This document shows, piece after piece, positions 5,718 to 23,391 of a stretch of DNA of 64,000 nucleotides. The position numbers were made by a program, and so were the translations under genes. How positions within the stretch are numbered: the stretch's first letter is position 1; every line of letters starts with the position of its first letter. This stretch comes from Patescibacteria group bacterium (lineage in GTDB: Bacteria > Patescibacteriota > Patescibacteriia > UBA9570): assembly GCA_041665365.1 (NCBI GenBank), contig JBAYIY010000005.1, positions 5,946 to 69,945 on the forward strand, in the 5' to 3' direction. The notes beneath the pieces were generated by a model. The model saw only the letters and a list, made by a program, of their open reading frames with translations. It made no database searches and had not been told where the DNA came from.

Positions 5718-6476
5718 ATGAGAACCGATTGGAATAAAGTATCTATCTGGTATGGTAAACATCTGCAAAAACCAGATACTTACCAACATAGTTTAATTTT
5801 CCCCAAAACACTGCACTTATTACAACCACAACCAGATAAACATTACCTAGATATTGCCTGTGGTGAAGGGGCGTTGGCCGAGCATATCATAAAAACCAAA
5901 AATACTCACGTCACCGGGGTAGATCTTGCCCCAAATTTAATCGCTCAGGCTAACAAAAAACAGTTACGTAACTGCCACTTTATAGTAGGTGATGCCACTA
6001 ATTTTCCCAAACAAATTCTTGAACACCAGTTTGATGGCGCCACTTGTATTTTAGCTTTACAAAATATCGCAGATATCACACCGATTTTCAAAGCCACCGC
6101 TAAAGTTCTAAAACCAAACTCCCCTTTGATTATTGTCTTAAACCATCCTTGTTTTCGTCCACCGCAACAAAGCGGCTGGGGGTTTGATGAACCACGTAAA
6201 CTCCAGTATCGCCGGATTGATACGTATATGAGTAGTTATCATGTGAACTTGACGGCCCATCCCGGTAAAAAAACCACTGTGAGTACAGTATCATTTCATC
6301 GCCCGTTACAAGATTACATAAATGGTTTAGGAGTCGCTGGTTTTATGATTGATCGCCTCGAAGAATGGACCTCCAATCGTGCCAGTCAACCGGGTGGTCG
6401 TGCCAAAGCCGAAAATCGATCCCGCCAGGAGTTTCCGTTGTTTATGGCGATTAGAGCTTATGTCACCTCTTTCTGA
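5718..6476 (+). CDS. class I SAM-dependent methyltransferase
   Basis: Motif I LDIACGEGALAEH, an acidic post-I residue (VTGVDLAP) and motif II/III-like blocks. Confidence 0.7.
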   Translation: MRTDWNKVSIWYGKHLQKPDTYQHSLIFPKTLHLLQPQPDKHYLDIACGEGALAEHIIKTKNTHVTGVDLAPNLIAQANKKQLRNCHFIVGDATNFPKQILEHQFDGATCILALQNIADITPIFKATAKVLKPNSPLIIVLNHPCFRPPQQSGWGFDEPRKLQYRRIDTYMSSYHVNLTAHPGKKTTVSTVSFHRPLQDYINGLGVAGFMIDRLEEWTSNRASQPGGRAKAENRSRQEFPLFMAIRAYVTSF

Positions 6477-8089
6477 TAACAACCTTCACAGTAAACTAAT
6501 TCTTTACGCTCCGGTGAATAGGTAGTAGAAAATTCTGTGCTGCACCGCCCGTGATGACTGTGATCAATTTGGGTGCACATACACTGCCGTTGCCACAGTT
6601 GTCGCGGATTGCGTAGCTGAAAGCGTTGTCGACGCCGTTCATCTGGACACAACTGTGGAATTGGTAAACCCATACGCTGATAAAAATCCAATTCGGCCTG
6701 CACAGTGCGATATGGTTTACCAGTCACGGCGCAAACTAAGGTGTTACTGTTTGTTACACTAGAGCCCGCTGCACTCGTATTTTCCCGCCACAACCAACCA
6801 TGATTACGTGTTTGCTCAGACGTTAATGGGTACCACATTTGCGCCATCGATTCATTATAAGCAAACGGTGACATTGTGATTGGAAAGAATTCACCCCATT
6901 CGCCGGTTTGCTTCATATGGGTAATCAACTTTTGCTGTAACTGTTTATAATCGGTTTCTGAGTAGGGTTTATTAAGAATGCAAAATTTTTCTTGCTTTAA
7001 CCCAACACACCCAAACAAATCATGGCCTTTTTCAATTTCGATACTATACACACAGTTAGTCGCCGACCACGCACCTATGGAAAATTTACAGTTATATGAT
7101 TGATACCCCAAACTACTACCTTCATAAGCTAATTCTATATCGGTAGTATGACAAACATCCATTAAATCTTTCACATGAAAACCAGTATACACATAAGCAC
7201 ACTGATCGATACCAGTTACATCGTAACACTGATAAGCAGCATGCGAATTAAAAATAAAATCACCCGATACTTGCTCGCTGCTGGCTTGCTCTAATGGCCG
7301 ATGAATAGCCTTGATCTTTAGTTCCTCAAATTTTGTTAACAATTCAGTCAGTTTACCCTGTCTTAATTTCTCCATAATCAGGCCCTTCTCTTGTGTATAT
7401 GCCTCCGGTGAATAATGTTTATTATAAATATAATATTGTTTATTTCTTAAATTGGTAGAGAATAAACAATCGGTGCAACCACGACAATCGAACAAAAACA
7501 AGCTATCGGTACAATGCTTACAATTTTGCGCAAACCACAAACGATAACATTTTTCCACATCAACTACCTCATAACAATCTTCACTTTCAATGCAATTCAA
7601 AGTATCCACACAACTAATCGATTTTATGATCTGACTAGAATACAAACAATCTTCATCGTAATCTCCGGCAAAGACCAAATAACAATCTTTGCAATGTCCG
7701 GTCATATTAACATAATTGGAATTCTCATTAGCAATGACTGTTAAAGCCATCTTTGGAACGGCTTTGAAAAGTTTATTCCATTGCGTAAAAAATGGCTGCG
7801 CGAAATCAATCTCTTGACCATAATCTAAAGCAGTCCATTGATCTGATAACCAACAATCGGAACAATATATTGTATAGACTGTTTCAGCTGGATAAATTGA
7901 GATTATTGGTTTATGACAAAGATCACACGGCCGATTAAACATCGTATGCTCATTCCGCCACGCCAAGCGCCGCTGTTGCCGACAATCTGGACACAAGGTT
8001 GGTGCTGGTACAGAAATCTTCTGATAAAAAACCTGATCGGAAGCTGTGATTTGAAAAGTTTTACTGCACTGTTGACATTGTTTGGTCAT
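6458..8089 (-). CDS. Cys-rich double-zinc-ribbon family protein, paralog 1 (unknown function)
   Basis: 543 aa. N-terminal CQQC...CPDCR and CDLCHK...YCSDCW ribbons, a central run of NC..C dyads, the conserved block FGCVGLKQEKFCILNKPYSETDY...GEWGEFFP...SPFAYNE, and a C-terminal block RNPRQLWQRQCMCTQIDH...TTYSPERKELVYCEGCY. The third ribbon is degenerate (CAVTG...LCPDERR). Its start overlaps the paralog 2 stop in ATGA. Confidence 0.8.
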   Translation of the reverse strand: MTKQCQQCSKTFQITASDQVFYQKISVPAPTLCPDCRQQRRLAWRNEHTMFNRPCDLCHKPIISIYPAETVYTIYCSDCWLSDQWTALDYGQEIDFAQPFFTQWNKLFKAVPKMALTVIANENSNYVNMTGHCKDCYLVFAGDYDEDCLYSSQIIKSISCVDTLNCIESEDCYEVVDVEKCYRLWFAQNCKHCTDSLFLFDCRGCTDCLFSTNLRNKQYYIYNKHYSPEAYTQEKGLIMEKLRQGKLTELLTKFEELKIKAIHRPLEQASSEQVSGDFIFNSHAAYQCYDVTGIDQCAYVYTGFHVKDLMDVCHTTDIELAYEGSSLGYQSYNCKFSIGAWSATNCVYSIEIEKGHDLFGCVGLKQEKFCILNKPYSETDYKQLQQKLITHMKQTGEWGEFFPITMSPFAYNESMAQMWYPLTSEQTRNHGWLWRENTSAAGSSVTNSNTLVCAVTGKPYRTVQAELDFYQRMGLPIPQLCPDERRRQRFQLRNPRQLWQRQCMCTQIDHSHHGRCSTEFSTTYSPERKELVYCEGCYQKEVT

Positions 8090-9771
8090 ACTGCTTCTTT
8101 TTGATAACAGTCTTCACAATAGAGAATCTCCTTACGGTCTGGCGAATAGGTTGTTTCAAAGTTCACGGCACAACGGCCTGCATGTTTATGGTCAATTTGT
8201 GTGCACATGCATTGACGCTGCCAGAGCTGGCGAGGATTACGTAAAAATCGACGTTGCAGATGACGACAGTAAAAACAAATATTTGGTAGTGGAATAATAC
8301 GCGCACGGTAATACTCTAGTTCATGGGTGGTAATCTTGTAGTTTTTGCGGCAATTTTGGCAGGCTAGAATTGCAGTCAATATATCATCATTCACTTCCTT
8401 AATATCATCCGGTAAAATGGTCATTGTTTCTTGTCCAACTGTACTAGGTAATTGCTCTTGCCAATGATAGCCCTGAGCTTGTGCCATAGATTGAGTTAGT
8501 GGGAACCACCATTGAGCAGAGGTTTCATTGTAGCCAAATGGACTGATCACCGCAGGAAAGTATTGTCCATATTCACCACGGTCTTGCATGGCCGTTATTA
8601 ACTTAGTACGTAATTCATAATATTCACTCGCCGCATATGACCGATTTAAAATGCAAAATTCTTTTTGTCTTAATGACACAGACCCAAAACAGTTTTTACA
8701 GCCAGATGAGCTGATACAGTATTCCATGTTACTGCTACCATCAAACACTTGGTGACAAAACTTAATGTTATAACAGTTACCCCCGACAATGGTGCAGTCA
8801 TAGATCAATTCGGCATTTAAACCATACTGATAGTAGTCATAACTATCTTTTACGTGCATGGATAACTGCGAACAGAATTTACTGTTCTCCACTTCTCGGC
8901 AATCATAACTAGCCAAGACATTTTTGCTTTGATAAATGTTATTACCGGTGCAATCTTCCGTCTTGTTGCTTTGTTGATATTTGTAAAACCTCGTCACTTG
9001 ATATTGATGTATTTTTTCCAACCAATACTGAACTTGGCTGTGCGAACCAAAATTTATGGCTTCGAGACGATGATTATACTCAACCTCAGTGAGCTGCTTA
9101 TTCAACCAATAATATTTTTGGTTACGTAAACCAACCGATCCAAAGCAATCATGACAACCCACACAATCCTTAAGCATGAAACTGTCCGAACAATTCAAAC
9201 AATCTTGCGACCACTTGAGATTATACGAATCATGACAATCTATACAGTTATAGCAAAGCTCACAGTTGAAATTATTATAACCATCCATGGTATCTTTGGA
9301 TTGTTTTAGGCCGTAAGTGTATAGACAGTTTTCGTTGAGGTCAGCATGAAAGATTAAGTAACAATTTTTATTATCACCGGCATAATTTGTATAATCGCTA
9401 TTTTCATTGTTTCCACCAACATCAGTCGCTTGATGTGGAATACATTGATCAAGTGCTTGCAATTGCGGAAAAAAAGGTTTAGTTAAATCAATCTCACTGC
9501 CATAGTCTAATGGATCCCACTTATCACTCCACCAACAAGCACGACAATATGAAACATAAGGCGAATTTGGTTTATAAATGGTCAGAATTTTTTTGTGACA
9601 CAATTGACACTCTCCTGGATATAAAATCATTTCATTACACCATGTCAGGCGCCGCTGTTGTCGGCAATCTGGACACAAGGTTGGTGCTGGTACAACAATC
9701 TTCTGATAAAAAGCCTGATCGGAATCTGTGATTTGAAAAGTTTTACTGCACTGTTGACATTGTTTGGTCAT
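8086..9771 (-). CDS. Cys-rich double-zinc-ribbon family protein, paralog 2
   Basis: 561 aa. The first 44 residues are near-identical to paralog 1 (MTKQCQQCSKTFQIT.SDQ.FYQKI.VPAPTLCPDCRQQRRL). C-terminal CQNCRKNYKIT...CFYCRH plus RNPRQLWQRQCMCTQIDH...YCEDCY. Confidence 0.8.
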   Translation of the reverse strand: MTKQCQQCSKTFQITDSDQAFYQKIVVPAPTLCPDCRQQRRLTWCNEMILYPGECQLCHKKILTIYKPNSPYVSYCRACWWSDKWDPLDYGSEIDLTKPFFPQLQALDQCIPHQATDVGGNNENSDYTNYAGDNKNCYLIFHADLNENCLYTYGLKQSKDTMDGYNNFNCELCYNCIDCHDSYNLKWSQDCLNCSDSFMLKDCVGCHDCFGSVGLRNQKYYWLNKQLTEVEYNHRLEAINFGSHSQVQYWLEKIHQYQVTRFYKYQQSNKTEDCTGNNIYQSKNVLASYDCREVENSKFCSQLSMHVKDSYDYYQYGLNAELIYDCTIVGGNCYNIKFCHQVFDGSSNMEYCISSSGCKNCFGSVSLRQKEFCILNRSYAASEYYELRTKLITAMQDRGEYGQYFPAVISPFGYNETSAQWWFPLTQSMAQAQGYHWQEQLPSTVGQETMTILPDDIKEVNDDILTAILACQNCRKNYKITTHELEYYRARIIPLPNICFYCRHLQRRFLRNPRQLWQRQCMCTQIDHKHAGRCAVNFETTYSPDRKEILYCEDCYQKEAV

Positions 9772-9800
9772 ACTTCGATAAACTCAGTATAAATAAACTC

Positions 9801-10580
9801 CTATTTACTCGACTCAACGGATTGATGCCACAACGTATAGAAGATATGTGCCTGATGATTGGCTAATTCTTTATTATGAATCGTAATACCAAATAGTTCT
9901 TGCCCGGGGAAAATGTAGGCTACGTGATCGGCGTAAATTAATTGATCACAGGTAGCACCAAGTTGACGCTGGCTTGATTCTGGAATTATTTCCTGAATAG
10001 TACTGCGCGCGACCGTATATGAACCGGAGGTTTCTAGAATCATTTTCAAGTGTAGATCTTTTTCCTTGCTGCGTAACATGATCTCCTCTAAAAATTCTAG
10101 ATACCGGCCATGCAGCGTGGGTGTATAATCCACCGCCGCGAGCACTAATAAATCGTCACCCTTTTTGGAATAAGTTAAAGCCTCATCCCAAATTTTGGCA
10201 ATCGCTTCCTGTGCGCGGAAATAATGAATCTCCAAATCTTCCGGTACTGACGCATAGAGAACATTTAATTCGCCAATTAGATTAGGCATGTCGGTGGCCA
10301 ACTTATCCAAATTGCGGCGCTCTTGTTCAAACACGGTCAGTAATTTAGCCGGTTTGGCCACTTTGCATTTTTGCCCATAGCTGCGCACATCCATATCCGC
10401 TAGCCCCTTTTGATTCAAGACTTTAAAAATATTGTAACCAGTCATGCGGGATAATCCAGCCCGTTCGGCAATTTGCGGAATCGTGGCTAAACCCAACTCT
10501 AATCCGGCCACATAAAATTTTATATCGTTGTCCGTTAAACCAAGTTGTAAAAGATCTTTCTTAATTTTGCTTGTGATCAT
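9801..10580 (-). CDS. TrmB-family transcriptional regulator
   Basis: N-terminal wHTH typical of TrmB (LGLTDNDIKFYVAGLELGLATIPQIAERAGLSRMTGYNIFKVLNQKGL) followed by a C-terminal effector domain. Confidence 0.65.
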   Translation of the reverse strand: MITSKIKKDLLQLGLTDNDIKFYVAGLELGLATIPQIAERAGLSRMTGYNIFKVLNQKGLADMDVRSYGQKCKVAKPAKLLTVFEQERRNLDKLATDMPNLIGELNVLYASVPEDLEIHYFRAQEAIAKIWDEALTYSKKGDDLLVLAAVDYTPTLHGRYLEFLEEIMLRSKEKDLHLKMILETSGSYTVARSTIQEIIPESSQRQLGATCDQLIYADHVAYIFPGQELFGITIHNKELANHQAHIFYTLWHQSVESSK

Positions 10581-10690
10581 AGGTTATCATGTGCCGTAAC
10601 GTGGTCAAACGTGATTATATTTCTACCTGTGGAAAATGAATAAAATAGCTAGCCTTAGGTTAGCAGATTAACCAAACATGTCAAATCAAC

Positions 10691-12307
10691 TTATACTACA
10701 GTTTTTGTATAACAGTCTTCACAATACACTAACTCTTTTCTATCTGGTGAATAAGTGGTTTCAAATTCGGTTTTACAACCAGTATTCATGCATTGTTTAT
10801 GCCATAATTGATACGGCACACGATGTTTCATACGCTCAATATGTCGGCAGTCTGGGCAAATTTCTGGCCAGGGTATGTTCTGAGTGGCGTAAAACTTCAA
10901 TTCTTGCGGAATTAATTTAAAACTCTTGTGACAGTGTGTGCAATCATAAATTTGTTTAGTCGCATCGGCTTTACCATAAGTGCCAGGCAGCTGATCTTGC
11001 CACATCCAACCGCTAGCGCGCGCTTGCGCTTTGGTTAGCGGAAACATTTCTTGGGCCATCGTCTCATTATACGCATAGGTAGACAGCGCCGGCGAAAAGA
11101 ATTGACCCCACTCGCCGGTTTGTTTCATGTGCTCGATTAATTTATCTTTCAGTGTATTATAATCTGTCTCAGAATACTGTTTATTTAAAATGCAATATTT
11201 TTCATTTTTTAAACCAATACAACCAAAACAATTTTCCGGTCCATTTAAACATTGATCACAGTACAAGTTATTTTGCCCATGCCAAACAATATTACAAAAC
11301 CAATTACCATACGCTTGTCCACCACAAGCATGCGCTTCATAGAGCAGCTCGGCTTCTTCACCGTAAACGGTAAAATCGTAGCAATCTTTCGATTGAAAGA
11401 TGCCAAAACAATACGCACAATGTTCTGAGGTTTTTGTTTGAAAGGAAAATGTTGTAGCCAGATTGCCGACTAAATAATCACCACTACTCATCTCATTGCG
11501 TAAACCACGATAATACTTATACGGTACTGTCAGGGTGAATTCATTAAACTCATCACGCGCTCGGTTAATGCCTGCCCGAGTATCTAATTGATAACTAGCT
11601 AACTTTTTAGCATAGTCTTCCGGGTTATATTGCTGATTAAAAATACAATACGATTTGTTCCGTAAACCCACCGACATAAAACAATTTGAACATCCATTAC
11701 AATCTGTTAAAAAATATGAATCGCGACAATTATTAACATGCCACGAGTAATTGACATTGTAACAATCCTCACTATGCGTGGTTTCGTAACACAGCTCACA
11801 TTTGTGGTTATAACTGCAATCAATTGAATCTTTTACATAGTAGATGCCCAACGAATATAAGGAATTTTCACAATCAGTGGCATCGTACACCATGTAACAA
11901 TTCTTTAATCTATAAACGTGATTACAATAATCACTATTTTCCCCGGTGGCATCATTCATTAAAGCAATGCGCGGTACACGCTGTTTGAGCTCTAACAGTT
12001 GATCAAACAACGGTCGCGTAAAATCAATGTCTTGACCATAATCAAGTGGGTTCCATGTATCACTCCACCAACACGTGCGACAATACACTGTATACTTTTT
12101 ATCCGGTGAATACACAGACAAAGTATTATTACCACACACCGCACACTGGCGTTGATATAAAGTATGTTCATTACGATTCGTTAAACGTAATTGAAACCGA
12201 CACGCCGGACACCGTACCGGCTTAGGTACGCCCAAACGCTTGTAATAAGCCTGATCCGCCTCAGTAATGATGAAACTATGTTGACAGTGCTGACAAGTTG
12301 TTTCCAT
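10691..12307 (-). CDS. Cys-rich double-zinc-ribbon family protein, paralog 3
   Basis: 538 aa. METTCQHCQHSFIITEADQAYYKRLGVPKPVRCPACRFQLRL, central Cys dyads, the FGCIGLKNEKYCILNKQYSETDY...GEWGQFF block, and C-terminal CTHCHKSF...CPDCRH...TTYSPDRKELVYCEDCY. Confidence 0.8.
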   Translation of the reverse strand: METTCQHCQHSFIITEADQAYYKRLGVPKPVRCPACRFQLRLTNRNEHTLYQRQCAVCGNNTLSVYSPDKKYTVYCRTCWWSDTWNPLDYGQDIDFTRPLFDQLLELKQRVPRIALMNDATGENSDYCNHVYRLKNCYMVYDATDCENSLYSLGIYYVKDSIDCSYNHKCELCYETTHSEDCYNVNYSWHVNNCRDSYFLTDCNGCSNCFMSVGLRNKSYCIFNQQYNPEDYAKKLASYQLDTRAGINRARDEFNEFTLTVPYKYYRGLRNEMSSGDYLVGNLATTFSFQTKTSEHCAYCFGIFQSKDCYDFTVYGEEAELLYEAHACGGQAYGNWFCNIVWHGQNNLYCDQCLNGPENCFGCIGLKNEKYCILNKQYSETDYNTLKDKLIEHMKQTGEWGQFFSPALSTYAYNETMAQEMFPLTKAQARASGWMWQDQLPGTYGKADATKQIYDCTHCHKSFKLIPQELKFYATQNIPWPEICPDCRHIERMKHRVPYQLWHKQCMNTGCKTEFETTYSPDRKELVYCEDCYTKTVV

Positions 12308-12314
12308 AAGGTGA

Positions 12315-13877
12315 TTAATATATTAGCTTATTGTAACACCCTTCACAATACACTGTTTCTTTTCTATCTGGTGCATAAGTGGTTTCAAACTCTACCTGAC
12401 ACCCTTTATTCATACATTGACGGTGCCATAAGCGACGCGGATTGCGTAATTTCATTCTATCCAAATGTCGGCACTGCGGACAAAGCTGCGGTACTGGCAA
12501 ATGCCATTGCTGATAATAGGCCAGTTCATTAGCAACTAGGCGATAATTTTTCGCACAGCGCTGACAGGTTGGTAGATTATCAACCTGGTTGTCTAGCTGT
12601 TTTGTGACAGTTTCAGCCATAGGAAAATACTCCTGAGCCACTGTGTCTTGATATGGAAATGGCGACAGTGACAATGGAAAAAATTCTCCCCACTCCCCGT
12701 GTTGTGTCATACCTTGTTTAATTTGTTTTACCAAAGTATTATAATCTGTTTCCGAATAAGACTTATTTAAAATACAATATTGTTGTTTACGTAAACCAAT
12801 GCAACCAAATAAATTCTGGCTGGTAAAACAATGATCACAATAAAACAAATTGGAATTCCCATCCCAACAAATATTTAAACCAAGACTGTTTTTAGTCTGT
12901 AAACTACTATGACATTCGTAAGTTAACTCATTCTCAACTCCACCAATAAATAAATCCCGACTGTCCTTTGTTTGCCGCACATCAAATACATAAGCTGTTT
13001 GCTCCTGGTCAATCACATCAAACCCATAAGTAGTTTGGTAACAATTTTTCATTAAATCACCGGAAGATTGTTCACAATTAATTTGCTCACTGGCTAAATG
13101 CGGTAACGCTATTTCTAGTTTAGCTAGTTGAGCGCGATACTGTGCAATCGTTTCATGTGTCCAATTAACCGCCGCTAAACGTGCTCGGTAGTCAGCTTCA
13201 CTTAATTGTTCATTGAACCAACAAAACTTTTTATTGCGCAAATTAACACAGCCAAAACAATCGCTGCAGTTACGACACGCATATGAAAAATAACAATCCC
13301 GACAATTAACACAGCGTTGTGAAAAAAACACTTGATAACAATCACTGCACTCAACTATTTCGTAACACAATTCACAGCGATACGGCATAATAAAATCCAT
13401 ACAGTCACGCGAGTGAAATGGAAACATACCATACAGACAATTTTCATTATCAATGCCACCGGCTGACAAATATAAATTTTTCCCGGCTACTGCCCACGGC
13501 GCATAATCGCAATTTTCACAATTGCGAGTGGTAATGGCCATGCGCGGCACCACTAATTGTAAAGCCCGAATTTGCTCAAAAAAAGATTGACCCGGTTGAT
13601 ATACCCGACCAAAACTAAGTGGATCCCAAACATCAGACAACCAGCAAGTTTGACAGTATATGGTGTATGGGCTATCTGGTGCATATAATGAAATCACTGC
13701 TTTGCCACATAAGCGGCACTTATCTGCGTACAAACTCCGCTCATTCCGCCACGCCAAGCGCCGCTGTTGCCGACAATCTGGACACAAGGTTGGCTGCGGT
13801 ACAGCCATACGTTGATAAAACTCCAGATCGGCTGGATAAATGGTAAATGTTTGCTGACAATTAGTGCACTTACTCAT
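12315..13877 (-). CDS. Cys-rich double-zinc-ribbon family protein, paralog 4
   Basis: The track start is 13904; I prefer Met10 (MSKCTNCQQTF, ATG 13875-13877) by alignment to the other paralogs. That start lies 2 nt after the RelE stop. Same conserved blocks (FGCIGLRKQQYCILNKSYSETDY...GEWGEFFP...; C-terminal CPQCRH...TTYAPDRKETVYCEGCY). Confidence 0.75.
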   Translation of the reverse strand: MSKCTNCQQTFTIYPADLEFYQRMAVPQPTLCPDCRQQRRLAWRNERSLYADKCRLCGKAVISLYAPDSPYTIYCQTCWLSDVWDPLSFGRVYQPGQSFFEQIRALQLVVPRMAITTRNCENCDYAPWAVAGKNLYLSAGGIDNENCLYGMFPFHSRDCMDFIMPYRCELCYEIVECSDCYQVFFSQRCVNCRDCYFSYACRNCSDCFGCVNLRNKKFCWFNEQLSEADYRARLAAVNWTHETIAQYRAQLAKLEIALPHLASEQINCEQSSGDLMKNCYQTTYGFDVIDQEQTAYVFDVRQTKDSRDLFIGGVENELTYECHSSLQTKNSLGLNICWDGNSNLFYCDHCFTSQNLFGCIGLRKQQYCILNKSYSETDYNTLVKQIKQGMTQHGEWGEFFPLSLSPFPYQDTVAQEYFPMAETVTKQLDNQVDNLPTCQRCAKNYRLVANELAYYQQWHLPVPQLCPQCRHLDRMKLRNPRRLWHRQCMNKGCQVEFETTYAPDRKETVYCEGCYNKLIY

Positions 13878-14441: not shown

Positions 14442-16013
14442 TCAAGCTACTATTCTTTGATAACAGTCTTCACAATACACTAACTCTTTTCTATCTGATG
14501 CATAAGTGGTTTCGAATTCGTTTTTACAACCTTTATTCATGCATTGACGATGCCACAAGGTCATTGGGTTTTGAAATTTGAATCGTTCCGCCAGACGACA
14601 GTTTGGGCACAAGTGTGGTTGGGGTAGACGCATCTTTTGATAAAAAGCTAGCTCTTGGGCAATAATCTTAAATGGGTGGGTACACTGGGTGGTTTTGGTT
14701 TCAGTTAATGGAAAATATGCTTGAGCCAAAGTTTCATTATAAGTATACATGGATAAATCTAATGGAAAAAATTCACCATACGTGTATCTCAGACCTTTGG
14801 TATCAACGTACGGCATGTCGATCATGTGTTGTTTAATTTTTTTGACTAGATCGTGGTAAGCAGATGCAGAATACTGTTTATTTAAAATACAATACTGTTT
14901 TTTTCTGACACCGACACAACCGAAGATATCGGCTGAATTTATGGCTAACAGCGCATATTCTAAATTACGACAATCCGGCCAGCTCATGATACTAAATTTC
15001 ACATTGTAAACATTCTCCCCTACCCCCACACATTCATAGGCTCGCTCCACATTATTACCCCAGGATAAATAATCATAAGAGTCACGTATGGGATTAAGCC
15101 CACTTAACATAATGTATTTGCAATTTTCGGCCTGACTAACTTGATAAGCCTGATAAGTATGTCTAGAATTATCAACATAATCGCCAGACACACTGTCATT
15201 TTTTTTACCATGCATGTATTTTACTGGGTATTGCAACCAATTATTACTCGCTTCAGTTTTGAGCCGGTGTATTTCAGTATTAGATGTAAAGTCTACGCTC
15301 GCTAATTTAGCCAGGTAGGTGTCTTTATCCAGTGGCTGATTAAACCAATAATAATTTTGATTATGCAAATTAGCTGACCCAAAACAATTGGTGCAACCAA
15401 CTAAATTTCGTGAAAAATATATATCACTAGAATCATTACAATCAATCGAGTAAAAGGTGCGATAACATTTTTTTATGTTACTACTCCAATAACACAATTC
15501 CGACTCGTCAACCATGTTGCAATCAAAACAATCTTTAGATTTAGTGATATTATCGCAATAATAAGAATCTTCGACATAATCAGAATGAAACACCAGATAA
15601 CAATTTTTTAAATGACCCACATTCATACAGTAGTCACTATTCTCCAATGTGGGAGTGTCAGAGCATAATGCCATCAAGGGCACGCGCTGCATGAGTTGTT
15701 TAAATTGTGTAAAAAACGGTTTAGAAAAATCATAGTCAGTGCCATATGTCATCGCCTCCCACTGGTCAGACCACCAACAAGTGTTACAGTACACTGTATA
15801 AGGTTTATCTGAGGAATACATTGATAACATTGACTTACCGCATAAATCACACTGGTCTTGATACAACGACCGCATGTTATAAAAACTCAACCGCCGAATT
15901 AACCGACACTGTGGACACCACGTGGGTGGTGGCACAGCCATTTGTTTATAAAAATCTAAATCCATTTGATCAAGCACAAAGCGTTGCTGACAGCGAACAC
16001 ATTGTTTAATCAT
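14442..16013 (-). CDS. Cys-rich double-zinc-ribbon family protein, paralog 5
   Basis: 523 aa. MIKQCVRCQQRFVLDQMDLDFYKQMAVPPPTWCPQCRLIRRL, Cys dyads, FGCVGVRKKQYCILNKQYSASAY, and a C-terminal CPNCR...NPMTLWHRQCMNKGC...TTYASDRKELVYCEDCY. Its start overlaps the stop of the 923-aa gene (ATGA). Confidence 0.8.
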   Translation of the reverse strand: MIKQCVRCQQRFVLDQMDLDFYKQMAVPPPTWCPQCRLIRRLSFYNMRSLYQDQCDLCGKSMLSMYSSDKPYTVYCNTCWWSDQWEAMTYGTDYDFSKPFFTQFKQLMQRVPLMALCSDTPTLENSDYCMNVGHLKNCYLVFHSDYVEDSYYCDNITKSKDCFDCNMVDESELCYWSSNIKKCYRTFYSIDCNDSSDIYFSRNLVGCTNCFGSANLHNQNYYWFNQPLDKDTYLAKLASVDFTSNTEIHRLKTEASNNWLQYPVKYMHGKKNDSVSGDYVDNSRHTYQAYQVSQAENCKYIMLSGLNPIRDSYDYLSWGNNVERAYECVGVGENVYNVKFSIMSWPDCRNLEYALLAINSADIFGCVGVRKKQYCILNKQYSASAYHDLVKKIKQHMIDMPYVDTKGLRYTYGEFFPLDLSMYTYNETLAQAYFPLTETKTTQCTHPFKIIAQELAFYQKMRLPQPHLCPNCRLAERFKFQNPMTLWHRQCMNKGCKNEFETTYASDRKELVYCEDCYQRIVA

Positions 16014-18781
16014 ATATTTTTCAGCTCATTTAGTCTTTTTTTCACTCTTTCATGAACTGATTGAGCCACGGCTGATTTATCTGAATCCATAAAACAACTC
16101 TCTAGTCTGGTTAATATACTAGATTGCGTTACAGCTTCACCAGCCCCAAATACTCGTTTTCTAATGGCAAGATTAATTTCACGTATTACTATTTTTTTTA
16201 ATTCTTGTGCCAGTGCTCTAACTTGATTTGGTAATAATACTAACACCGCTTTTTGAAGATTATCTATTGATCCAGGGATCAATTTCTTTACTTCAGCAGT
16301 TGTAGAGTTATGCTGAAACATTACTACACCTGACCAAAGGGCAGCTCTGTAATCTTCTTGGTAACACAGACGCAGAGACAATTGATCAATTGCCTGTTCA
16401 CCCTGTTGCATGCTAATAAAACCAGGATCATTTGGAATATATTGTTCAGCTAAACGAAATAACTTTGTCTGCCAATCATGTTTGTAATTTATTATATTAT
16501 CAAAATATATATTATCAAAAAGATTAGGATCATCATCTCTCATTTTTTTTAAAGTATCTCTCCACTGATCTAAAGTTGTAATTCTATCTATTTTTTTTGT
16601 TTTAGGTTGGCCTTCTTCATAAACTGTAACTTCTTGTGCTTCAAGTGGTTTGGCAAACTCAAGTAAGGCATTATACTTTGGATCAAATAATTTTTGTAAT
16701 AAAACTTTCCGGTCGGCTTCGGGCATGGCTTCAATAATCGCCTCAAAATCACCCTCGCGTACTATTCTACCCCATTGTTCTACAAATTGATCAGGTGTTA
16801 CGATGCGTTGTAGTACCCGATATATCGCTCCCGGTTCACCGTTTGGTCGGTAATTATAAATTGTCTCTATATATTTTTTAAATTTCTCTGATTCTGGAAC
16901 ATTTGGGTCATCTTCAATAAGACGTTGCCCAATAATAAACACTTTACTATCTACTTCTTTCGCCATCGCATAAAGTCTAGTTGGTTTAAGAATTTTTCGC
17001 CAAACTGCTGCCACAGTTTTTGGTTTAACCCCCTGTCTTTTTTGCCAGGCACGACGTGCTCGTTGAAACGTAGATTCATCTTTCATAGCTTGCGCCTCAC
17101 GTTCTACTAATCCATCATACCATTTCAACCATTGTTCTTGAGTGATATTTGGATGCGCTTCCCATACATCTCTTAATCCAAGTTGACGATCCAGTCGATG
17201 TAGTCTTTGTTCTTTAGTCAAATCATGCTGAAATTCATCACACAGTAACGCTGTATCAGATACAGTTTCCCAAATTTGTAAGCGCATATCTTCAAATATA
17301 GGTCCAGTTAGGGTTTTTAATTTCATAGTTCCAACACGAGCCTCTTTAATTTTTTTAATCTCAGGATCATTTTGCATAACTTCAGGTAAACTATTCCAAG
17401 TAGCAAAAAATACATCTGGAGTACCAGTTTTAAGACGGTGTAGAGTTCTTTCACGTTCGGCAAAGGAGACAACTTTCAACATGGCTTCAAGATCATGGCG
17501 GATTTTGTACCCCGGCATAAACTGCATATACATACCAGCTAACAACACTGGGTGAACTGTTTGCTCAGTGGCCGCTTGTCTAAATTGAGCATCAATAGTG
17601 CGCATGGCAGCATCAGAGATGGCGGTTAATTCCGGCATGGGGGTATCAACCTCAAGTAAGGCTTCAACTCGTTTTTTAAATAGTTGTAGACCTTCATTAT
17701 CTTCTGGAATGGATAAATGTAATGACCGATATAAGGCGAGATGAAACACATTACCAAATACCCCACTGCGAGCGGCGGTTGGCTCGGCATAATCATGGCC
17801 AGGGGTAACGCCGATCATTTGTAAAAACAATAATGGATTAGTAGCTTTAACTTTTTCAGCAGCATTAAGTAAGGCAATAACATCTTCAGAATCACCATGG
17901 GCAAAGTGTAGCGTGGCGCGATAATCAGCCAGTTCAGCTGGAGACATGTCGTCTCGTAATAGCTTACTGTGTTCATCAATCCAAGTAATCAGCGTTTGAT
18001 AAGCCGCGTGATCCGGGGCATGTTCTAAATCATAGGCTAAAGTATCTGATCGACGCCGTAATTCATTGGGTAAAGTACGTGGTGCCCTATCACGCCTGAT
18101 CTCTAATCTGGTTTGCCAATAGTCTTGATGAGTTGCACCATCTAATGGATCAATTTCTCCCACCCATTTAATAGCTTCTTTACCGGGATGAACCGGGGTA
18201 GTGAAATCTAAAATTGGAAAAGTAGGATCTTGGTCATGCACTGCCTGCATCAAACCAAATAATGAAGTGACGCGTTCGGCACCGGCTTCCCCCCTGTATA
18301 GACCAGTTTGAACAGCATCTAAAACATCAATCGTTCTAATCAGTTCCTGTAGATTATAAAATTTTGGGTTTAATTCACCAATTAAATATCCTTGTAAGGT
18401 GCGTAGTTGAGTTTGTTCAGCTGGGTTTAATGGTGCACCATTTCCTGCCGCGCGATAGAGTAATGCTGGATACGATGTATTTACAGCAAAAGCCTCTAAG
18501 CGTGTTTCAATGTCCCCCACTAATACCACTGCATCAGACTTATCCGCTACTCGTCTGGATAAACTCTCTAAGGCTCCATCGTTGGTACCAGTTCTAAAAG
18601 TAACATCTAAAACTTGCTGCGCCGACTTAGGTGGGACAGTTTTGATCTCATCTTTAACTATTTCTACACCAGTATCGGCAGGTTGCAATTTACGACCTGT
18701 ATCCACAGTTCTTGCTTGTTTTCCTCTTCTCCCTCTACCTCGAGTTTCTACAGACATAATTACTCCAACAAGTCTTTCCAA
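16010..18781 (-). CDS. large hypothetical protein (923 aa), Arg-rich N-terminus
   Basis: Long uninterrupted ORF with the same codon usage as its neighbours. Basic N-terminus (RGRGRRGKQARTVDTGRK). Predicted soluble and helical. No motif I recognise. Translationally coupled at both ends. Confidence 0.7.
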   Translation of the reverse strand: MERLVGVIMSVETRGRGRRGKQARTVDTGRKLQPADTGVEIVKDEIKTVPPKSAQQVLDVTFRTGTNDGALESLSRRVADKSDAVVLVGDIETRLEAFAVNTSYPALLYRAAGNGAPLNPAEQTQLRTLQGYLIGELNPKFYNLQELIRTIDVLDAVQTGLYRGEAGAERVTSLFGLMQAVHDQDPTFPILDFTTPVHPGKEAIKWVGEIDPLDGATHQDYWQTRLEIRRDRAPRTLPNELRRRSDTLAYDLEHAPDHAAYQTLITWIDEHSKLLRDDMSPAELADYRATLHFAHGDSEDVIALLNAAEKVKATNPLLFLQMIGVTPGHDYAEPTAARSGVFGNVFHLALYRSLHLSIPEDNEGLQLFKKRVEALLEVDTPMPELTAISDAAMRTIDAQFRQAATEQTVHPVLLAGMYMQFMPGYKIRHDLEAMLKVVSFAERERTLHRLKTGTPDVFFATWNSLPEVMQNDPEIKKIKEARVGTMKLKTLTGPIFEDMRLQIWETVSDTALLCDEFQHDLTKEQRLHRLDRQLGLRDVWEAHPNITQEQWLKWYDGLVEREAQAMKDESTFQRARRAWQKRQGVKPKTVAAVWRKILKPTRLYAMAKEVDSKVFIIGQRLIEDDPNVPESEKFKKYIETIYNYRPNGEPGAIYRVLQRIVTPDQFVEQWGRIVREGDFEAIIEAMPEADRKVLLQKLFDPKYNALLEFAKPLEAQEVTVYEEGQPKTKKIDRITTLDQWRDTLKKMRDDDPNLFDNIYFDNIINYKHDWQTKLFRLAEQYIPNDPGFISMQQGEQAIDQLSLRLCYQEDYRAALWSGVVMFQHNSTTAEVKKLIPGSIDNLQKAVLVLLPNQVRALAQELKKIVIREINLAIRKRVFGAGEAVTQSSILTRLESCFMDSDKSAVAQSVHERVKKRLNELKNI

Positions 18782-20823
18782 GATACTTTATTGGCTGGCG
18801 CATTGATTTGCGGTGGAGTGATTGGTTTTGGTTTAACCGGTTGTGGTTGTACAGGTTTATTTGGTTGCGGTGGTACCTGTTGGGGCAATTCACCACCTCT
18901 ATTTCGCCGTCGTCGGCGCCGTTTGCGTTTTTGTCCATCACCGGTTGGAGTTGGTTGAACATTCTGTGGTTTTGGTTGTTGAACCACGGGTTTTTCCAAA
19001 ACAACACGTGGAGCCGTACCATTTTTTAATGCCTGTAGGGGCAATTCATGAATTGCCCCTACAGGGTGAATTGGTTCAATCTCATCATCCGGCACATCTT
19101 CGAACTCATCATCATTATCTTCATCAACAACCAGATCAACTTTCTTACTCCCCTCTCCTGCAGAAGGAGAGGGGCTGGGGGCGAGGTCTCTCAATTGATG
19201 ATTAATAAAACTAATCCGTGGCCGAGTTGATGCATTATTATTTTCTACTTCATCTTCTTTAATAGCTTTTGCTAATTCGACTACTGCTGGTTTATTTGGT
19301 TTTGTTTGTTCAACTTGAATTGGCTTAGCTGGTACTTCACCGGGAATAAAATTACTGGTATCAACCTGCCCATTAGTTGCTTCGGCTTCATTGACGGTTA
19401 GCTGTACACCCTCTTTAGACATTTTAGCTGGTTTGTCATCGTCTGATAATTCAGGTTCAGCAGCGGTGATAATTTGATCCGGCCAATCCATCTCATCGTC
19501 TTTGGGTGAGGTTGTTGGAGCTATCTCGGGGTTAACATTGGGTCGATTAATTTGTACGCCACTCCAACGAATAATCCGATCTTCCACCACGGCTTGAGGG
19601 CGAGCATACCGTTCGCGTGAGACTTTAATCACTTTGTCTTTATTGTCGGTGGCACCGGTGGCTGGTGGTAAACCAATAGCTGAGAATGGTTCGGTGGCCA
19701 CACCATCAACCATTAAACGCATGCAAACAGTATATTTTTTCAGATTAACAATATCGGCTGGTAAAAACTGTGGCGCGAATTCTAACTCTAACTCGGCAGC
19801 ATCAGTTGCACCCACTCGAAACACAATCATTGTCCCGACGTTACCAAACACAGCGGCTTTTACCACATCACCTAATTGTTCAAAATACTGATGCGCCATG
19901 ATTAAACACAAGCGATATTTTCTGGCTTCAGATAAAATTCCAGCAAAACTATCGGTGGCGAAATTTTGAAACTCATCAACATATAAATAGAAATCTTTCC
20001 GCTCCTCTTCTGGAATATCTACCCGGCTCATGGCCGCAATTTGCAATTTTGTAATCATCATGGCTCCCAGCAAGGCCGAATTTTCTTCACCAATTCTGCC
20101 TTTAGCCAGATTCATAATTAAAATCTTCTGATTGTCCATCACATCACGCATCTCGATAGTGCTCTTCGATTGTCCGACAATGTTACGAATAATCGCTGAA
20201 GCTAAAAACTGACCGACTTTGTTTTGAATTGGCGCAATCGCTTCAGTTCTAAATTTTTCTGAATAATTGGCGTATTCATCGGCCCAAAAGGTTTTCACCA
20301 CTGGGTCGGTCACTTTATCAACCACTTTTTTACGATAGGCTTTATCGACCAACATGCGCATTAAACCCAACAACGTGCTGCCGGGATATTCTAATAACGC
20401 CAAAATGGTATTGGTCATAATGTACTCCATGCGTGGTCCCCAAGAATCAGCCCAGATTTTCTTGAACACACCCACTAAACCATAGGCCACTAGATGTTTA
20501 TAATCTTCGCCAATACTTTCTAAAATATTAAACGCAATCGGATATTTGGTATCAGACGGATTAAAGTAGATCACATCATTAACCCGATTAGTGGGAATGA
20601 ACTCTAAAATCTTTTCGGCTAAATCACCATGTGGGTCAACTACGGCTACGCCATGCCCAGCCCGAATATCACTAATAATCGCATTTTCCAACATGGTGGA
20701 TTTACCCATGCCGGTCTTACCCACTAAATACATATGCCGGCGCCGATCATCCCGTTTAATACCAAATTTACGCCGTTGGTTACGGAAGTTAGTTTCGGCA
20801 AAGACGGCAATTTCGCTGGACAT
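18760..20823 (-). CDS. P-loop ATPase, TraD/VirD4 (type IV coupling protein)/HerA-FtsK-like
   Basis: Walker A MYLVGKTGMGKST and Walker B FYLYVDEFQNF. T4CP-like motifs VVDPHGD and LIMAHQYFEQL. The ~200-aa C-terminal tail is disordered, Pro/Asp/Glu-rich, and ends in KRKRRRRRRNRGG plus a P/Q-rich repeat. Confidence 0.75.
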   Translation of the reverse strand: MSSEIAVFAETNFRNQRRKFGIKRDDRRRHMYLVGKTGMGKSTMLENAIISDIRAGHGVAVVDPHGDLAEKILEFIPTNRVNDVIYFNPSDTKYPIAFNILESIGEDYKHLVAYGLVGVFKKIWADSWGPRMEYIMTNTILALLEYPGSTLLGLMRMLVDKAYRKKVVDKVTDPVVKTFWADEYANYSEKFRTEAIAPIQNKVGQFLASAIIRNIVGQSKSTIEMRDVMDNQKILIMNLAKGRIGEENSALLGAMMITKLQIAAMSRVDIPEEERKDFYLYVDEFQNFATDSFAGILSEARKYRLCLIMAHQYFEQLGDVVKAAVFGNVGTMIVFRVGATDAAELELEFAPQFLPADIVNLKKYTVCMRLMVDGVATEPFSAIGLPPATGATDNKDKVIKVSRERYARPQAVVEDRIIRWSGVQINRPNVNPEIAPTTSPKDDEMDWPDQIITAAEPELSDDDKPAKMSKEGVQLTVNEAEATNGQVDTSNFIPGEVPAKPIQVEQTKPNKPAVVELAKAIKEDEVENNNASTRPRISFINHQLRDLAPSPSPSAGEGSKKVDLVVDEDNDDEFEDVPDDEIEPIHPVGAIHELPLQALKNGTAPRVVLEKPVVQQPKPQNVQPTPTGDGQKRKRRRRRRNRGGELPQQVPPQPNKPVQPQPVKPKPITPPQINAPANKVSWKDLLE

Positions 20824-20825
20824 AT

Positions 20826-22319
20826 TTATACAAATGGTAAATTAGATGGCGCTTCTGGTTCGACTTTAATTGCTGGAGTTGCGGGAGATGTTTGAGTTGT
20901 TGGTGTTTCCATGACGGGTTCAACCATGACGACAGGTTTAACAGTAACACCACCGCCTTTTTCTAACTGCACCGGAATGGCAGCACTAGCCTCAGCTTCA
21001 TCATAGCGCAATAACGTCGGCGGTTCCACACCACGCGATTGCGCCTTAGCCACATACGGCGCTCGCACATCAATTGACGGAAAGTGAAATAAAGCCGTAA
21101 TCTCTTCGGTTGATAAAATAAACCCTTCATGTTCACCTCGTTCCATGTCGCGTGACTTATATGCCCAATACATCCGGCGATAACGATTCAATACCCGATA
21201 CTTTGGAAATACAAACCGCCAAGATAAACAATTTTGATCAGTCCGCGTAATTTCACCCTCAGTAAAAGAATTAATATAACGATACAAACGCAAACCGCTT
21301 AACATACCACGACGAACTTTTTTGGAATCAACCATAGCCGGTGGAGCAAAATACATAAAGCGCACTTTTGAATGAAACGGCCAACGCGAGGCTTTTTTAT
21401 CAACTTCCTCAACAAATTCCTGTTCTGGTTTAGTCATACGCTGTCTTTCTTCTAAACGAGTATCATCGTGTGTTTCGGCCGCCGCTGATTCACCGCCAAA
21501 CAGAGCCTGATTAGTCATTTGCAGTGTTGATATGACAGTAGATTGAACGTGATCCATAATATCCGGGCCAGCATGGCCAGATTTGCCTGGCTCAACTAGA
21601 TTCATGATGGTTTCTTGTGCCCGGATTTTAAGTTTACCAAGATCGGCTGGTTGAATCATAATTTGATACCACAATTTTTCACCGGGTTGCAAGCGACTCA
21701 TAAATTCCAAAAGGTTGGCAAATGGATCAACCGCCTTCTGCGCTAAACTATGTTCAAACGCCGGATAAGGTTTAATCGGTAAAACATCGTCACCTTCCAA
21801 ACGCATCTCTGATCCCCATCCGGTCACTTTACGAGAATTAATCATTTCTAATGAGATATCTTTCGTATAATCTTCGACTTCAGACATGATGGCATCGGGG
21901 TAATGAGAATAAAATGCCGCCTGCACCATTTCTTTATAATATTTTGGAGCACGTACATAATAAGTAATATAGCCACCATCACTGACAATTTCGAAAGAGT
22001 ATTGCTCTTGTACAAAACCCAACCACCAAGTTTCGTACCAATCGGGTTGGTTATAAATACCATGCAGTTGTACAAAAATCTGTTCTACTGCCTTCATACT
22101 CTGCTCATTGTTCAGCGGCACTTCAATGCGATACATGACATGTTTGGTATGGTGTTTAAACTTTTCTTGAATCCAAAACAACCAACCGGTAAAGGCCATT
22201 TTTATCATGATCGGTATAAAAATCAATGCCCCACCATGACCAAGCAAAAACCATAACGCTTGAAACGGGTTATTGCCGTACTCTTTTAAAATATATTCAA
22301 GCAGCGGGGGCATACACAA
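20826..22319 (-). CDS. membrane-anchored hypothetical protein (497 aa)
   Basis: Two N-terminal TM helices (ALWFLLGHGGALIFIPIMI / FTGWLFWI), a large soluble domain and a low-complexity Pro/Thr-rich C-terminus. It ends 3 nt before the ATPase gene starts. Confidence 0.7.
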   Translation of the reverse strand: MCMPPLLEYILKEYGNNPFQALWFLLGHGGALIFIPIMIKMAFTGWLFWIQEKFKHHTKHVMYRIEVPLNNEQSMKAVEQIFVQLHGIYNQPDWYETWWLGFVQEQYSFEIVSDGGYITYYVRAPKYYKEMVQAAFYSHYPDAIMSEVEDYTKDISLEMINSRKVTGWGSEMRLEGDDVLPIKPYPAFEHSLAQKAVDPFANLLEFMSRLQPGEKLWYQIMIQPADLGKLKIRAQETIMNLVEPGKSGHAGPDIMDHVQSTVISTLQMTNQALFGGESAAAETHDDTRLEERQRMTKPEQEFVEEVDKKASRWPFHSKVRFMYFAPPAMVDSKKVRRGMLSGLRLYRYINSFTEGEITRTDQNCLSWRFVFPKYRVLNRYRRMYWAYKSRDMERGEHEGFILSTEEITALFHFPSIDVRAPYVAKAQSRGVEPPTLLRYDEAEASAAIPVQLEKGGGVTVKPVVMVEPVMETPTTQTSPATPAIKVEPEAPSNLPFV

Positions 22320-23391
22320 CAGTATAACGACCGTCTGGTAATTTACTAAATAATCGACGATTAGTGAGGGCTAAATGAATGGTATTTTTTTTCACAATCC
22401 GTTGTTCCAATACGGCTGTGACAAGTTGATCGCGTGTTAATGGACCACGCTCGGTTAAGATTTTTTTCACAATATCAGCTACGGCGCCTTTTTCGTAACC
22501 CCACTCCTTAAGAGCATAAATGCCACGACCCACTAACACATACTGGCTATTTAAAATTAATTCATTATGCACCGTGGGTGGATGGGCTTCTTTTTTAAAA
22601 ACTTCGGTAATTTGCTGAGCAATGTCGACAAAATGCATCGGTTTACTTACTTTTTTCAAAATTAAATAGATTTTATCATTCATGCGTTTTGGTACCACGC
22701 TCCCCCACGCCCGTAAACCGTATTCATCAAATGGATTATGATCGATCGCATCACTCACTTCCAATAAAGCGATAATAGTTTTTTCAGTTAATCTTGCATC
22801 AGGTGGAATTAGGTTCATAATACCAGCTACATTGAGAGGGATATTGGCCGTACCAATAGTGCGCACTAACAAATCGAGCGACTCGGTAATAAACTTGATG
22901 TCAGCGGTCTTAATGCGCCAACTTTTCATAAAAGTTTTGTCCGGACCGACTGACATTACCCGTGCACTGAGCAATTCAGTCAAAATAAACACTAAAGCCG
23001 CCTCCAGTTCGACCGTACTTTTTTCCAATAAAACCTCACTTAATAAATGGCTCTCTTGCATGATACCCCCGTGCTCTTCCAAGGTGGTTAGAATAACATG
23101 CTCAATCGGTTTTAAAACTACTTGTAAACTTGGATGTAATTTAATTTTACTCACAGCTAGGTTTTCGATCTGACGAATCCGTTCCCGAGTCACGGTATAT
23201 GATACTCCGATCGCTTCTAGGGTTTCTTTTGGTACACCATTTAATCCGTAACGCCGCTGTAACACATCAGCTTCTTTATCATTTAATTTGGCTAAAAGTA
23301 CACGAACAACATCACCAGGTTCAAACTCCTGTTTTTCTTGATCCTCTTTGCTCGCAATAATGCGATCAAGAATAGAAACTCCCATATCCAT
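22297..23391 (-). CDS. sigma-70 region 4 domain protein with a ~290-aa C-terminal extension (non-canonical sigma-like DNA-binding protein)
   Basis: Residues ~35-85 (DVLQRRYGLNGVPKETLEAIGVSYTVTRERIRQIENLAVSKIK) are a textbook sigma-70 region 4.2 HTH. No region 2 or 3 is recognisable. Overlaps the downstream gene by 23 nt. Confidence 0.75.
   Translation of the reverse strand: MDMGVSILDRIIASKEDQEKQEFEPGDVVRVLLAKLNDKEADVLQRRYGLNGVPKETLEAIGVSYTVTRERIRQIENLAVSKIKLHPSLQVVLKPIEHVILTTLEEHGGIMQESHLLSEVLLEKSTVELEAALVFILTELLSARVMSVGPDKTFMKSWRIKTADIKFITESLDLLVRTIGTANIPLNVAGIMNLIPPDARLTEKTIIALLEVSDAIDHNPFDEYGLRAWGSVVPKRMNDKIYLILKKVSKPMHFVDIAQQITEVFKKEAHPPTVHNELILNSQYVLVGRGIYALKEWGYEKGAVADIVKKILTERGPLTRDQLVTAVLEQRIVKKNTIHLALTNRRLFSKLPDGRYTVVYAPAA

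Follow-up and report, generated by a model that had tools for sequence, protein, structure and literature searches.

The question raised by the gene run at positions 6458–23391 of the DNA studied here is whether its 13 genes encode one machine and, if not, which of them belong together. The run lies in a stretch of 64,000 nt (the window) from contig JBAYIY010000005.1 of a Patescibacteria group bacterium (assembly GCA_041665365.1). It includes genes for a protein with sigma-70 region 4, a membrane protein, a VirD4/TrwB-like P-loop ATPase, a 923-aa protein, a toxin–antitoxin (TA) pair, a TrmB-like regulator and five Cys-rich paralogues. An earlier note on this DNA had read the whole run as one transcription and translation unit, a candidate DNA/RNA translocation or defence module. 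The 13 co-directional minus-strand open reading frames (ORFs), with identical coordinates, and the ATPase motifs and promoter-like site of that note were all found in the sequence. Comparison with other genomes, by contrast, revealed that the 17 kb run consists of several units forming a mosaic on a Patescibacteria (candidate phyla radiation, CPR) chromosome rather than one 13-gene machine. The reading that we prefer, at a probability of about 0.6, is that two chains, the membrane protein and the ATPase, build a ring ATPase of the VirB4/VirD4 group tethered to the membrane, that this ATPase family has the Cys-rich proteins as its clients and that the 923-aa protein and the TA pair are bystanders. 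All features of the window described below are on the minus strand unless a strand is given.

The gene neighbourhood was compared in 76 loci fetched around ATPase orthologues from one-per-species genomes of all CPR classes, with neighbours labelled using phmmer. The membrane-protein gene (20826–22319, probable start ATG 22313) was located directly upstream of the ATPase gene (18760–20823) in 69 of the 76 loci. The gene encoding sigma-70 region 4 together with a HARE-HTH domain (22297–23391) was present in 57, always just upstream of the membrane-protein gene, and in 38 loci secD–secF preceded it on the same strand. In the window, secF (23450–24334) was recognized from its translation and the context of the 76 loci, and secD (24336–25976), the upstream end of the block, from its translation and its occurrence in the 38 loci; secD lies outside the coordinates considered in the earlier note. 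The order and strand of the block never varied. Thus secD–secF, the sigma region 4/HARE-HTH protein, the membrane protein and the ATPase constitute a synteny block kept across Patescibacteria. The genes 3′ of the ATPase were not conserved, those in other classes being pgk, recJ-like, rnh, cysS, mnmA and alaS. The proposal that the ATPase and the genes downstream of it make up one system is not supported in most lineages, where housekeeping genes (pgk, cysS, alaS) follow the ATPase.

Two of the downstream units are confined to the window lineage. The 923-aa ORF (16010–18781) is an orphan with a single non-self homologue (31 % identity) among 5.8 billion proteins, and the neighbours of that homologue are a radical S-adenosylmethionine (SAM) protein, methyltransferases and unknown proteins, with no ATPase or Cys gene. 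It was found in none of the 76 ATPase loci, including those of relatives with 85–93 % ATPase identity. No Pfam, NCBIfam, PADLOC, PHROG or viral match was obtained for it, and its PDB sequence search returned noise. A phage origin was rejected, as viral contigs contained no relative. The adjacent small genes for a Phd/YefM-type antitoxin (14142–14390; PF02604, E 1.7e-4) and a ParE/RelE-type toxin (13870–14139; ParE PF05016, E 1.3e-4; RelE-like phrog_1213, E 6e-14) are separated by 2 nt and carry the family domains of a type II TA module, both Pfam matches being just under the cut-offs. A consensus match for a promoter was seen at 14445–14416 for the antitoxin gene. The Phd/ParE pair was likewise absent from all 76 loci, and the base composition of the 923-aa/TA segment gave no clear sign of foreign DNA. 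In locus L004, whose ATPase is 92 % identical to that of the window, the Cys array begins at the ATPase stop codon with an orthologue of window paralogue 3, without the 923-aa gene or the TA pair, and in L002 the ATPase is followed by a short ORF and then likewise by a paralogue 3 orthologue. The closest relatives lack both the 923-aa gene and the TA pair, which are thus lineage-specific insertions, passengers outside the conserved module. The operon position near the ATPase seems to accept lineage-specific large genes, as with the 923-aa gene. In Minisyncoccus archaeiphilus NZ_AP038758.1 (L075, 6335–9841), a patescibacterium in culture, the membrane-protein and ATPase genes are separated by an inserted gene for a protein of 1,169 aa, which begins like a type IV pilin (FTLIELLVIIAIIAIL) and contains long repeats rich in Ser, Thr and Gly.

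The layout of the run bears on the view that all 13 genes, each of them obligate, form one new DNA/RNA-translocation or defence system transcribed from 23401–23429. In keeping with it, the genes are co-directional, most neighbours overlap or lie only a few nucleotides apart, no convincing terminator was found inside the run, and ATPase and Cys genes co-occur elsewhere. The sigma region 4 and membrane-protein genes overlap by 23 nt if the latter starts at TTG and by 17 nt if it starts at ATG 22313. The membrane-protein and ATPase genes are 2 nt apart, paralogues 4 and 3 are 7 nt apart, and ATGA overlaps join the 923-aa gene to paralogue 5 and paralogue 2 to paralogue 1. Three junctions are looser and measure 51 nt ahead of the antitoxin gene, 110 nt ahead of trmB and 29 nt past trmB. 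A 22 nt overlap reported between the ATPase and 923-aa genes is also doubtful, because ATG 18757, preceded by GGAG and 2 nt past the ATPase TAA, is a likelier start; the 923-aa ORF more probably begins there and encodes 915 aa, whilst the NCBI gene call has 898 aa. The site TTGACA-17-TATACT at 23401–23429, with an extended −10 TG, matches the promoter consensus at 11 of 12 positions and is the top match in the interval 5.5–24.5 kb. This interval contained 60 promoter-like matches compared with 60.8 expected from shuffled sequence, so that the near-consensus site, although present and locally the best, is to be taken as a consensus match only. Rfam and tRNA scans detected nothing within 6458–23391. 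The single-system view is countered by the 76 ATPase loci, none of which contains the 923-aa gene or the TA pair, by the ATPase-free and Cys-free neighbourhood of the lone 923-aa homologue, by the 51 and 110 nt gaps and the promoter-like site before the antitoxin gene, which allow internal starts, and by PADLOC, in which the ATPase alone matched (mad8, HerA) with no partner. The comparative context has largely refuted it, and we regard it as extremely improbable.

The ATPase consists of a core (aa 1–430) and a low-complexity tail that ends in a basic run. PF10412 matched the core with 52.2 bits (cut-off 20.5) over aa 25–344, PF01935 also matched, PF12696 was above its cut-off, and PF02534 was above its cut-off in orthologues. 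In PDB sequence searches, the P-loop region was matched best by TrwB (1e9r) and DotL. The Walker A (GKTGMGKS) and Walker B (VDEF) motifs were invariant in the ATPase alignment (A3). No hydrophobic segment was found, in agreement with the earlier description of an ATPase without a transmembrane (TM) segment of its own. More than 8,000 database proteins match the core; the best-scoring 120 Patescibacteria homologues are 70–93 % identical to it, identity falls to 51 % across the 76 loci, and the nearest relatives are Kerfeldbacteria. A CxxC-x17-CxxC ribbon (PF23477) is present just past the core in 58 of these best 120 orthologues, but not in the clade of the window, in which the tail ends basic instead.

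The ATPase is of a known kind. A survey of 2,918 Patescibacteria genomes reported 5,713 VirD4-like type IV coupling protein (T4CP) genes, about two homologues per genome, of which only 148 were near virB4 (PMC12102498). The window gene behaves like these genes and is a Patescibacteria orphan T4CP, so that, as far as the ATPase is concerned, the earlier verdict of an unrecognized combination is superseded by the description of the widespread VirD4-like ‘orphan T4CP’ (PMC12102498). No type IV secretion system (T4SS) or relaxase gene was detected among the Pfam-scanned ORFs of at least 110 aa in the 64 kb window, no relaxase or mating-pair-formation gene recurred in the 76 ATPase loci, and VirB3, VirB6 and VirB8 were co-located with the ATPase in neither. 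Literature searches yielded no account of a split VirB4-like architecture, of the secDF/sigma region 4–HARE context or of a link with the Cys family.

The product of the gene directly upstream carries a single hydrophobic stretch of 30 residues (aa 21–50), and not two clear TM helices as first described. The family comprises about 1,425 clusters at 50 % identity. No Pfam, NCBIfam or PADLOC match was found for the membrane protein, the PDB sequence search gave noise and PHROGs gave only phrog_5156. An AF2 model built from 62 sequences (pLDDT, the predicted local distance difference test, 85) was compared with known structures by Foldseek, and the best 13 matches were all TrwK/VirB4 chains of R388, each with a probability of 1.00. 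As the membrane protein has no P-loop, we infer that the part of TrwK matched is the VirB4 N-terminal domain (NTD). The phrog_5156 profile spans both the membrane protein (positions 76–366) and the ATPase (407–806). Fused ORFs of 757–1070 aa with the TM segment, NTD and ATPase in one chain were found in Saccharibacteria-labelled, Berkelbacteria, CPR3 and WWE3 loci, and fused forms also occur in large Bacillus phages, namely CP-51 gp91 (911 aa; L163, 3753–6488) and phage G gp156. The Bacillus phage phrog_5156 forms were 24–28 % identical over 90 % of the core in tblastn. In CP-51, a putative sigma factor gene is located about 2.3 kb from gp91 on the opposite strand.

Taken together, the spanning phrog_5156 profile and the fused forms indicate that the membrane-protein and ATPase genes are the halves of one split architecture. 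The earlier suggestion of a split coupling-protein arrangement is upheld in that fused forms exist; the anchor subunit, however, resembles the VirB4 NTD. Placement within the group was less clear. The profile of the membrane protein did not match TrsD of pGO1 in hhalign (probability 0.45 %), and the ATPase profile did not separate TrsE (VirB4-type) from TrsK (VirD4-type) of pGO1.

These results also bear on the possibility that the pair is the coupling protein of a canonical T4SS encoded elsewhere in the genome, with the Cys array an unrelated family in a permissive spot. Pfam and NCBIfam place the ATPase with TrwB, TraD and VirD4, the scarcity of virB4 near Patescibacteria T4CPs (148 of 5,713; PMC12102498) is what would be seen if the T4SS were distant, and most ATPase loci have no nearby Cys gene. 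Nevertheless, the partner domain resembles the VirB4 NTD and not the transmembrane domain of a T4CP, the 64 kb window holds no T4SS gene among its Pfam-scanned ORFs, and ATPase–Cys adjacency occurs in at least four ATPase clades and a recoded lineage (see below). In S. epibionticum, moreover, the T4CP homologue is dispensable whereas T4SS genes are essential, and exaptation was considered possible (PMC12102498). We therefore consider a distant T4SS an unlikely explanation, while giving it more weight than the other alternatives.

The third member of the conserved block had been described as containing sigma region 4 only. Pfam and NCBIfam identified sigma-70 region 4 at aa 32–84 and, in addition, a C-terminal HARE-HTH/RNA polymerase delta-like winged helix at about aa 236–297, and the two domains occurred together in all 28 family members examined. 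The domain calls (Sigma70_r4, TrwB_AAD_bind/TraG-D_C/DUF87, Phd/YefM, ParE/RelE and TrmB) were confirmed. Region 4 matches RpoD/SigA structures, no sigma-70 region 2 was found in the protein, and its PADLOC match, MzaA, falls on the region 4 domain. Since both domains are RNA polymerase-contacting modules (region 4 of RpoD; the delta subunit), a function as a transcription factor is more likely for the protein than one as part of a translocase. This likelihood counts against the notion that the conserved trio is an FtsK/SpoIIIE-like housekeeping device for DNA handling in which the sigma region 4/HARE-HTH protein would be the DNA-recognition subunit, as does the weakness of the FtsK_SpoIIIE matches to orthologues, which were below threshold. 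Consistent with such a device are the very high conservation of the core, the position of the block among housekeeping genes (secDF, pgk, tRNA synthetase genes), the overlap of the HTH gene with the membrane-protein gene and the basic or zinc ribbon-bearing ATPase tails. On balance, we find it rather improbable.

The remaining unit of the run is an array of five Cys-rich genes: paralogue 5 (14442–16013), paralogue 4 (12315–13904, probable start ATG 13877), paralogue 3 (10691–12307), paralogue 2 (8086–9771, assigned from its translation and Pfam) and paralogue 1 (6458–8089). A gene for a TrmB-like winged-helix regulator (9801–10580, PF01978) lies within the array. The zf_Tbcl model was above the Pfam cut-off in four of the five paralogues and below it in paralogue 5 (19.4 bits, cut-off 24); paralogue 3 also matched zf_Tbcl_2 below the cut-off. 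PDB sequence searches with the Cys-rich proteins gave noise. Paralogue 1 was modelled with an N-terminal double zinc ribbon, two β-solenoid halves and a C-terminal double zinc ribbon, and paralogue 5 is assigned to the same family of zinc ribbons plus β-solenoid. At aa 481–485, paralogue 1 has CPDER in place of the family motif CPxCR, so that its third zinc ribbon is short of one cysteine; this copy may be decaying or have been put to another use. A class I SAM methyltransferase gene (5718–6476, plus strand) converges on this end of the array and overlaps the paralogue 1 stop by 19 nt.

A search with paralogue 5 returned more than 6,391 homologues, all hypothetical or unnamed apart from one generic label from JGI (the Joint Genome Institute), ‘Zn ribbon nucleic-acid-binding protein’. 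Where source labels were present, almost all were Patescibacteria, with one metagenome-assembled genome labelled Aenigmatarchaeota. The 199 full-length copies from metagenome contigs were 499–603 aa long with about 37 Cys each; their termini and the segment 361–420 were conserved, the zinc ribbons contained conserved Arg-rich motifs, and the solenoid faces were variable. Gene arrangement was compared in 83 loci, 80 of which were metagenome loci picked by similarity to one paralogue. Co-directional tandem arrays of at least two copies were found in 61 of the 83 loci, the maximum being 13 copies in one 21.7 kb locus. The only recurrent non-Cys neighbours were TrmB-like regulators and the ATPase; TrmB-like genes occurred in 10 of the 83 loci, and eight loci had a diverged TrmB-like family. 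The window paralogues are about 40 % identical to one another. Their orthologues in sister genomes (68 % identity for paralogue 4 with L002_2; 67 and 57 % for paralogue 3 with L002_1 and L004_1, respectively) are 57–69 % identical, compared with 92–93 % for the ATPase, and the gene order differs; the arrays thus evolve and rearrange quickly. A phage origin of the family was rejected, since viral contigs gave one fragment only, and the literature on the Cys-rich family and the secDF context offered nothing relevant. In a Staskawiczbacteria contig (L078, 6615–12442), a lone Cys gene lies between nrdD, for an anaerobic ribonucleotide reductase, plus a methyltransferase gene, the latter ahead of the Cys gene, and a gene for a radical-SAM/Fer4_12 activase-like protein. 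A fixed link of the family with nrdD/nrdG was dropped, as it was confined to this locus.

The Cys arrays and the ATPase family meet more often than we estimate for chance. An ATPase homologue was present in 15 of the 83 Cys-array loci, in most cases no more than about 100 nt from a Cys gene and in the same orientation, compared with a chance expectation of about 1, estimated from about two such genes per genome of about 1 Mb (PMC12102498) and 449 kb of non-array flank. In the core tree, the array-adjacent ATPases fall into at least four groups: the window clade, a second group of the main clade, a TM-less paralogue in which the NTD and ATPase are fused (including Peregrinibacteria L065, with five Cys genes) and a short paralogue. 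Locus L114 (1–18717) contained 28 Cys fragments under genetic code 11 and, under code 25 (UGA = Gly), an ATPase gene followed by eight full-length Cys paralogues; because the array resolves under code 25, L114 is from a UGA-recoded lineage of the Gracilibacteria/Absconditabacteria type. The PF23477 ribbon is common to ATPase orthologues and Cys-family members. In L103 and L117, one contig each carries main-clade and short ATPase paralogues with four Cys genes between them, which fits the figure of about two T4CP homologues per genome. Viewed from the other side, Cys genes were found among the 76 ATPase loci only in four close relatives and one Peregrinibacteria locus. Hence, when the pairings that the earlier note had proposed to look for in other genomes were examined, that of the ATPase with Cys paralogues was borne out in several ATPase clades, whilst that of the 923-aa protein with the ATPase was not seen in any of the 76 loci and its sole relative was in an unrelated context. 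A functional link between ATPase and array is plausible on these grounds.

If so, the link could also be of another kind, in which a cytoplasmic ring ATPase of the HerA style scaffolds the zinc-ribbon/β-solenoid proteins as sensors of foreign nucleic acid or protein in a conflict or defence assembly. The DUF87/HerA and PADLOC mad8/HerA matches, the array-linked ATPase paralogues without a TM segment and the conserved Arg-rich motifs of the zinc ribbons would suit such an assembly, as would the conserved termini, variable solenoid surfaces and quick turnover of the paralogues and the TA modules interspersed in the arrays of the window and L079. Effector domains (nuclease, Sir2, TIR or others), however, were not found in the ATPase and array loci, the PADLOC scan of the run detected no partner of any known defence system, and no known HerA system resembles arrays of up to 13 near-full-length copies; the single Cys-family fragment in viral contigs is neutral in this respect. 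We rate this assembly as improbable, and a defence role, raised at first for the whole run, has nothing in its favour beyond the lone mad8/HerA-type PADLOC match of the ATPase.

In the two-chain ATPase reading that we prefer, unit 1 is the conserved block from secDF to the ATPase, in which the hydrophobic anchor and VirB4-NTD-like fold of the membrane protein would tether the VirD4/TrwB-like P-loop motor, the two polypeptides together rebuilding a membrane-tethered secretion ATPase of the VirB4 type. The motor would assemble as a ring at the membrane, and ATP, acting through GKTGMGKS and VDEF, would drive the movement, in whichever direction, or the remodelling of a polymer substrate. The variable tail of the ATPase, with a zinc ribbon in most orthologues and a basic run here, may be the end that recruits the substrate. 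Units 2 (the 923-aa gene) and 3 (the TA pair) would be insertions with no role in that block. Unit 4, the fast-evolving Cys array with its TrmB-like regulator, would supply the clients of the ATPase, proteins acting as its substrates or its adaptors. A more far-reaching version, which we consider quite unlikely, is a T4SS-independent pathway in which an ATPase of VirB4 architecture and T4CP-like sequence, in membrane-tethered and soluble paralogous forms, handles an arrayed Cys-rich repertoire of 13 or more genes, for example for export to or against a host cell, with the CxxC-x17-CxxC ribbon as the docking element.

Several points weigh against the client relation and the tethered machine. 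Of the 76 ATPase loci, 71 have no Cys gene within 10 kb, and the ATPases that adjoin arrays are mostly paralogues without the membrane partner, which weakens the link from the array to the membrane module. Most proteins with zinc ribbons stay in the cytoplasm and have a stable fold, a poor fit with export. The 80 metagenome Cys loci were chosen via one paralogue and are thus phylogenetically non-independent, and what connects client and ATPase is adjacency plus a shared small domain. The ATPase is not cleanly placed in VirB4 or VirD4 by sequence. Finally, the T4CP homologue of S. epibionticum, which is not necessarily the orthologue of the window gene, is non-essential (PMC12102498).

Patescibacteria represent a large share of bacterial diversity and live on other cells, most of their genes being without known function, and the gene for the VirD4-like orphan coupling protein is among those that they conserve best. 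The split, membrane-tethered VirB4-like machine proposed here, its fixed neighbourhood and the family members that abut fast-evolving Cys arrays suggest possible partners for this protein and hypotheses that can be tested. A link between ATPase and array, if functional, would hint that episymbiotic bacteria have a transport or conflict system of a new type. The split VirB4-like architecture, the conserved context and the recurrent pairing with uncharacterized Cys arrays are worth following up.

The rest of the window is occupied by housekeeping functions, including SecA, a mur/ftsW cluster, LepA, MurJ, glycosyltransferases and RNase P RNA. The latter is of class A, full length and located at 60880–61230 (204.8 bits); no tRNA gene was found in the entire 64 kb. 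In the tandem paralogues at 26525–27916 and 27941–29335, FG-GAP repeats are joined to an L,D-transpeptidase (YkuD) domain, and a protein with FG-GAP repeats only is encoded at 46730–48574 inside the mur/ftsW cluster. Two Fic/DOC-domain proteins (32006–33034 and 34712–35857), 1.7 kb apart, flank a gene for a major facilitator superfamily transporter on the opposite strand.

Compared with known systems, the window ATPase shares with the T4CPs VirD4, TrwB and TraD the TrwB-type nucleotide-binding domain with Walker A and B, but it lacks their N-terminal TM domain, the anchor coming from the upstream gene, and has no relaxase or T4SS nearby. The predicted VirB4-NTD-like fold ahead of an ATPase recalls VirB4 (TrwK of R388; TrsD plus TrsE of pGO1). 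It differs from VirB4 in that the N-domain has its own membrane anchor, the P-loop domain is nearer to the T4CPs by hidden Markov model, and no CagE_TrbE_VirB or AAA_10 match was obtained in Pfam/NCBIfam and none to TrsD, the only trace being VirB4_plasma (E 7e-4 over 36 residues). With HerA/FtsK-type defence systems (MADS mad8, HerA-Sir2, HerA-DUF4297), the ATPase alone matched (mad8, 2e-13; HerA, 1.5e-6); a PADLOC scan of the other eight proteins detected no system partner, MzaA being the sole other match. The likeness to ESX/type VII secretion (EccC/EssC and EccE, with diversified substrates) is one of weak structural similarity and an analogy only, as the window has no WXG100, LXG or EssB/EccB–D components, and its Cys-rich proteins, of about 560 aa with zinc ribbons, are unlike type VII substrates. 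The phrog_5156 proteins CP-51 gp91 and phage G gp156, although fused, phage-encoded, of unknown function and without a Cys-rich family nearby, resemble the window pair as a single-chain form of the same two-domain architecture.

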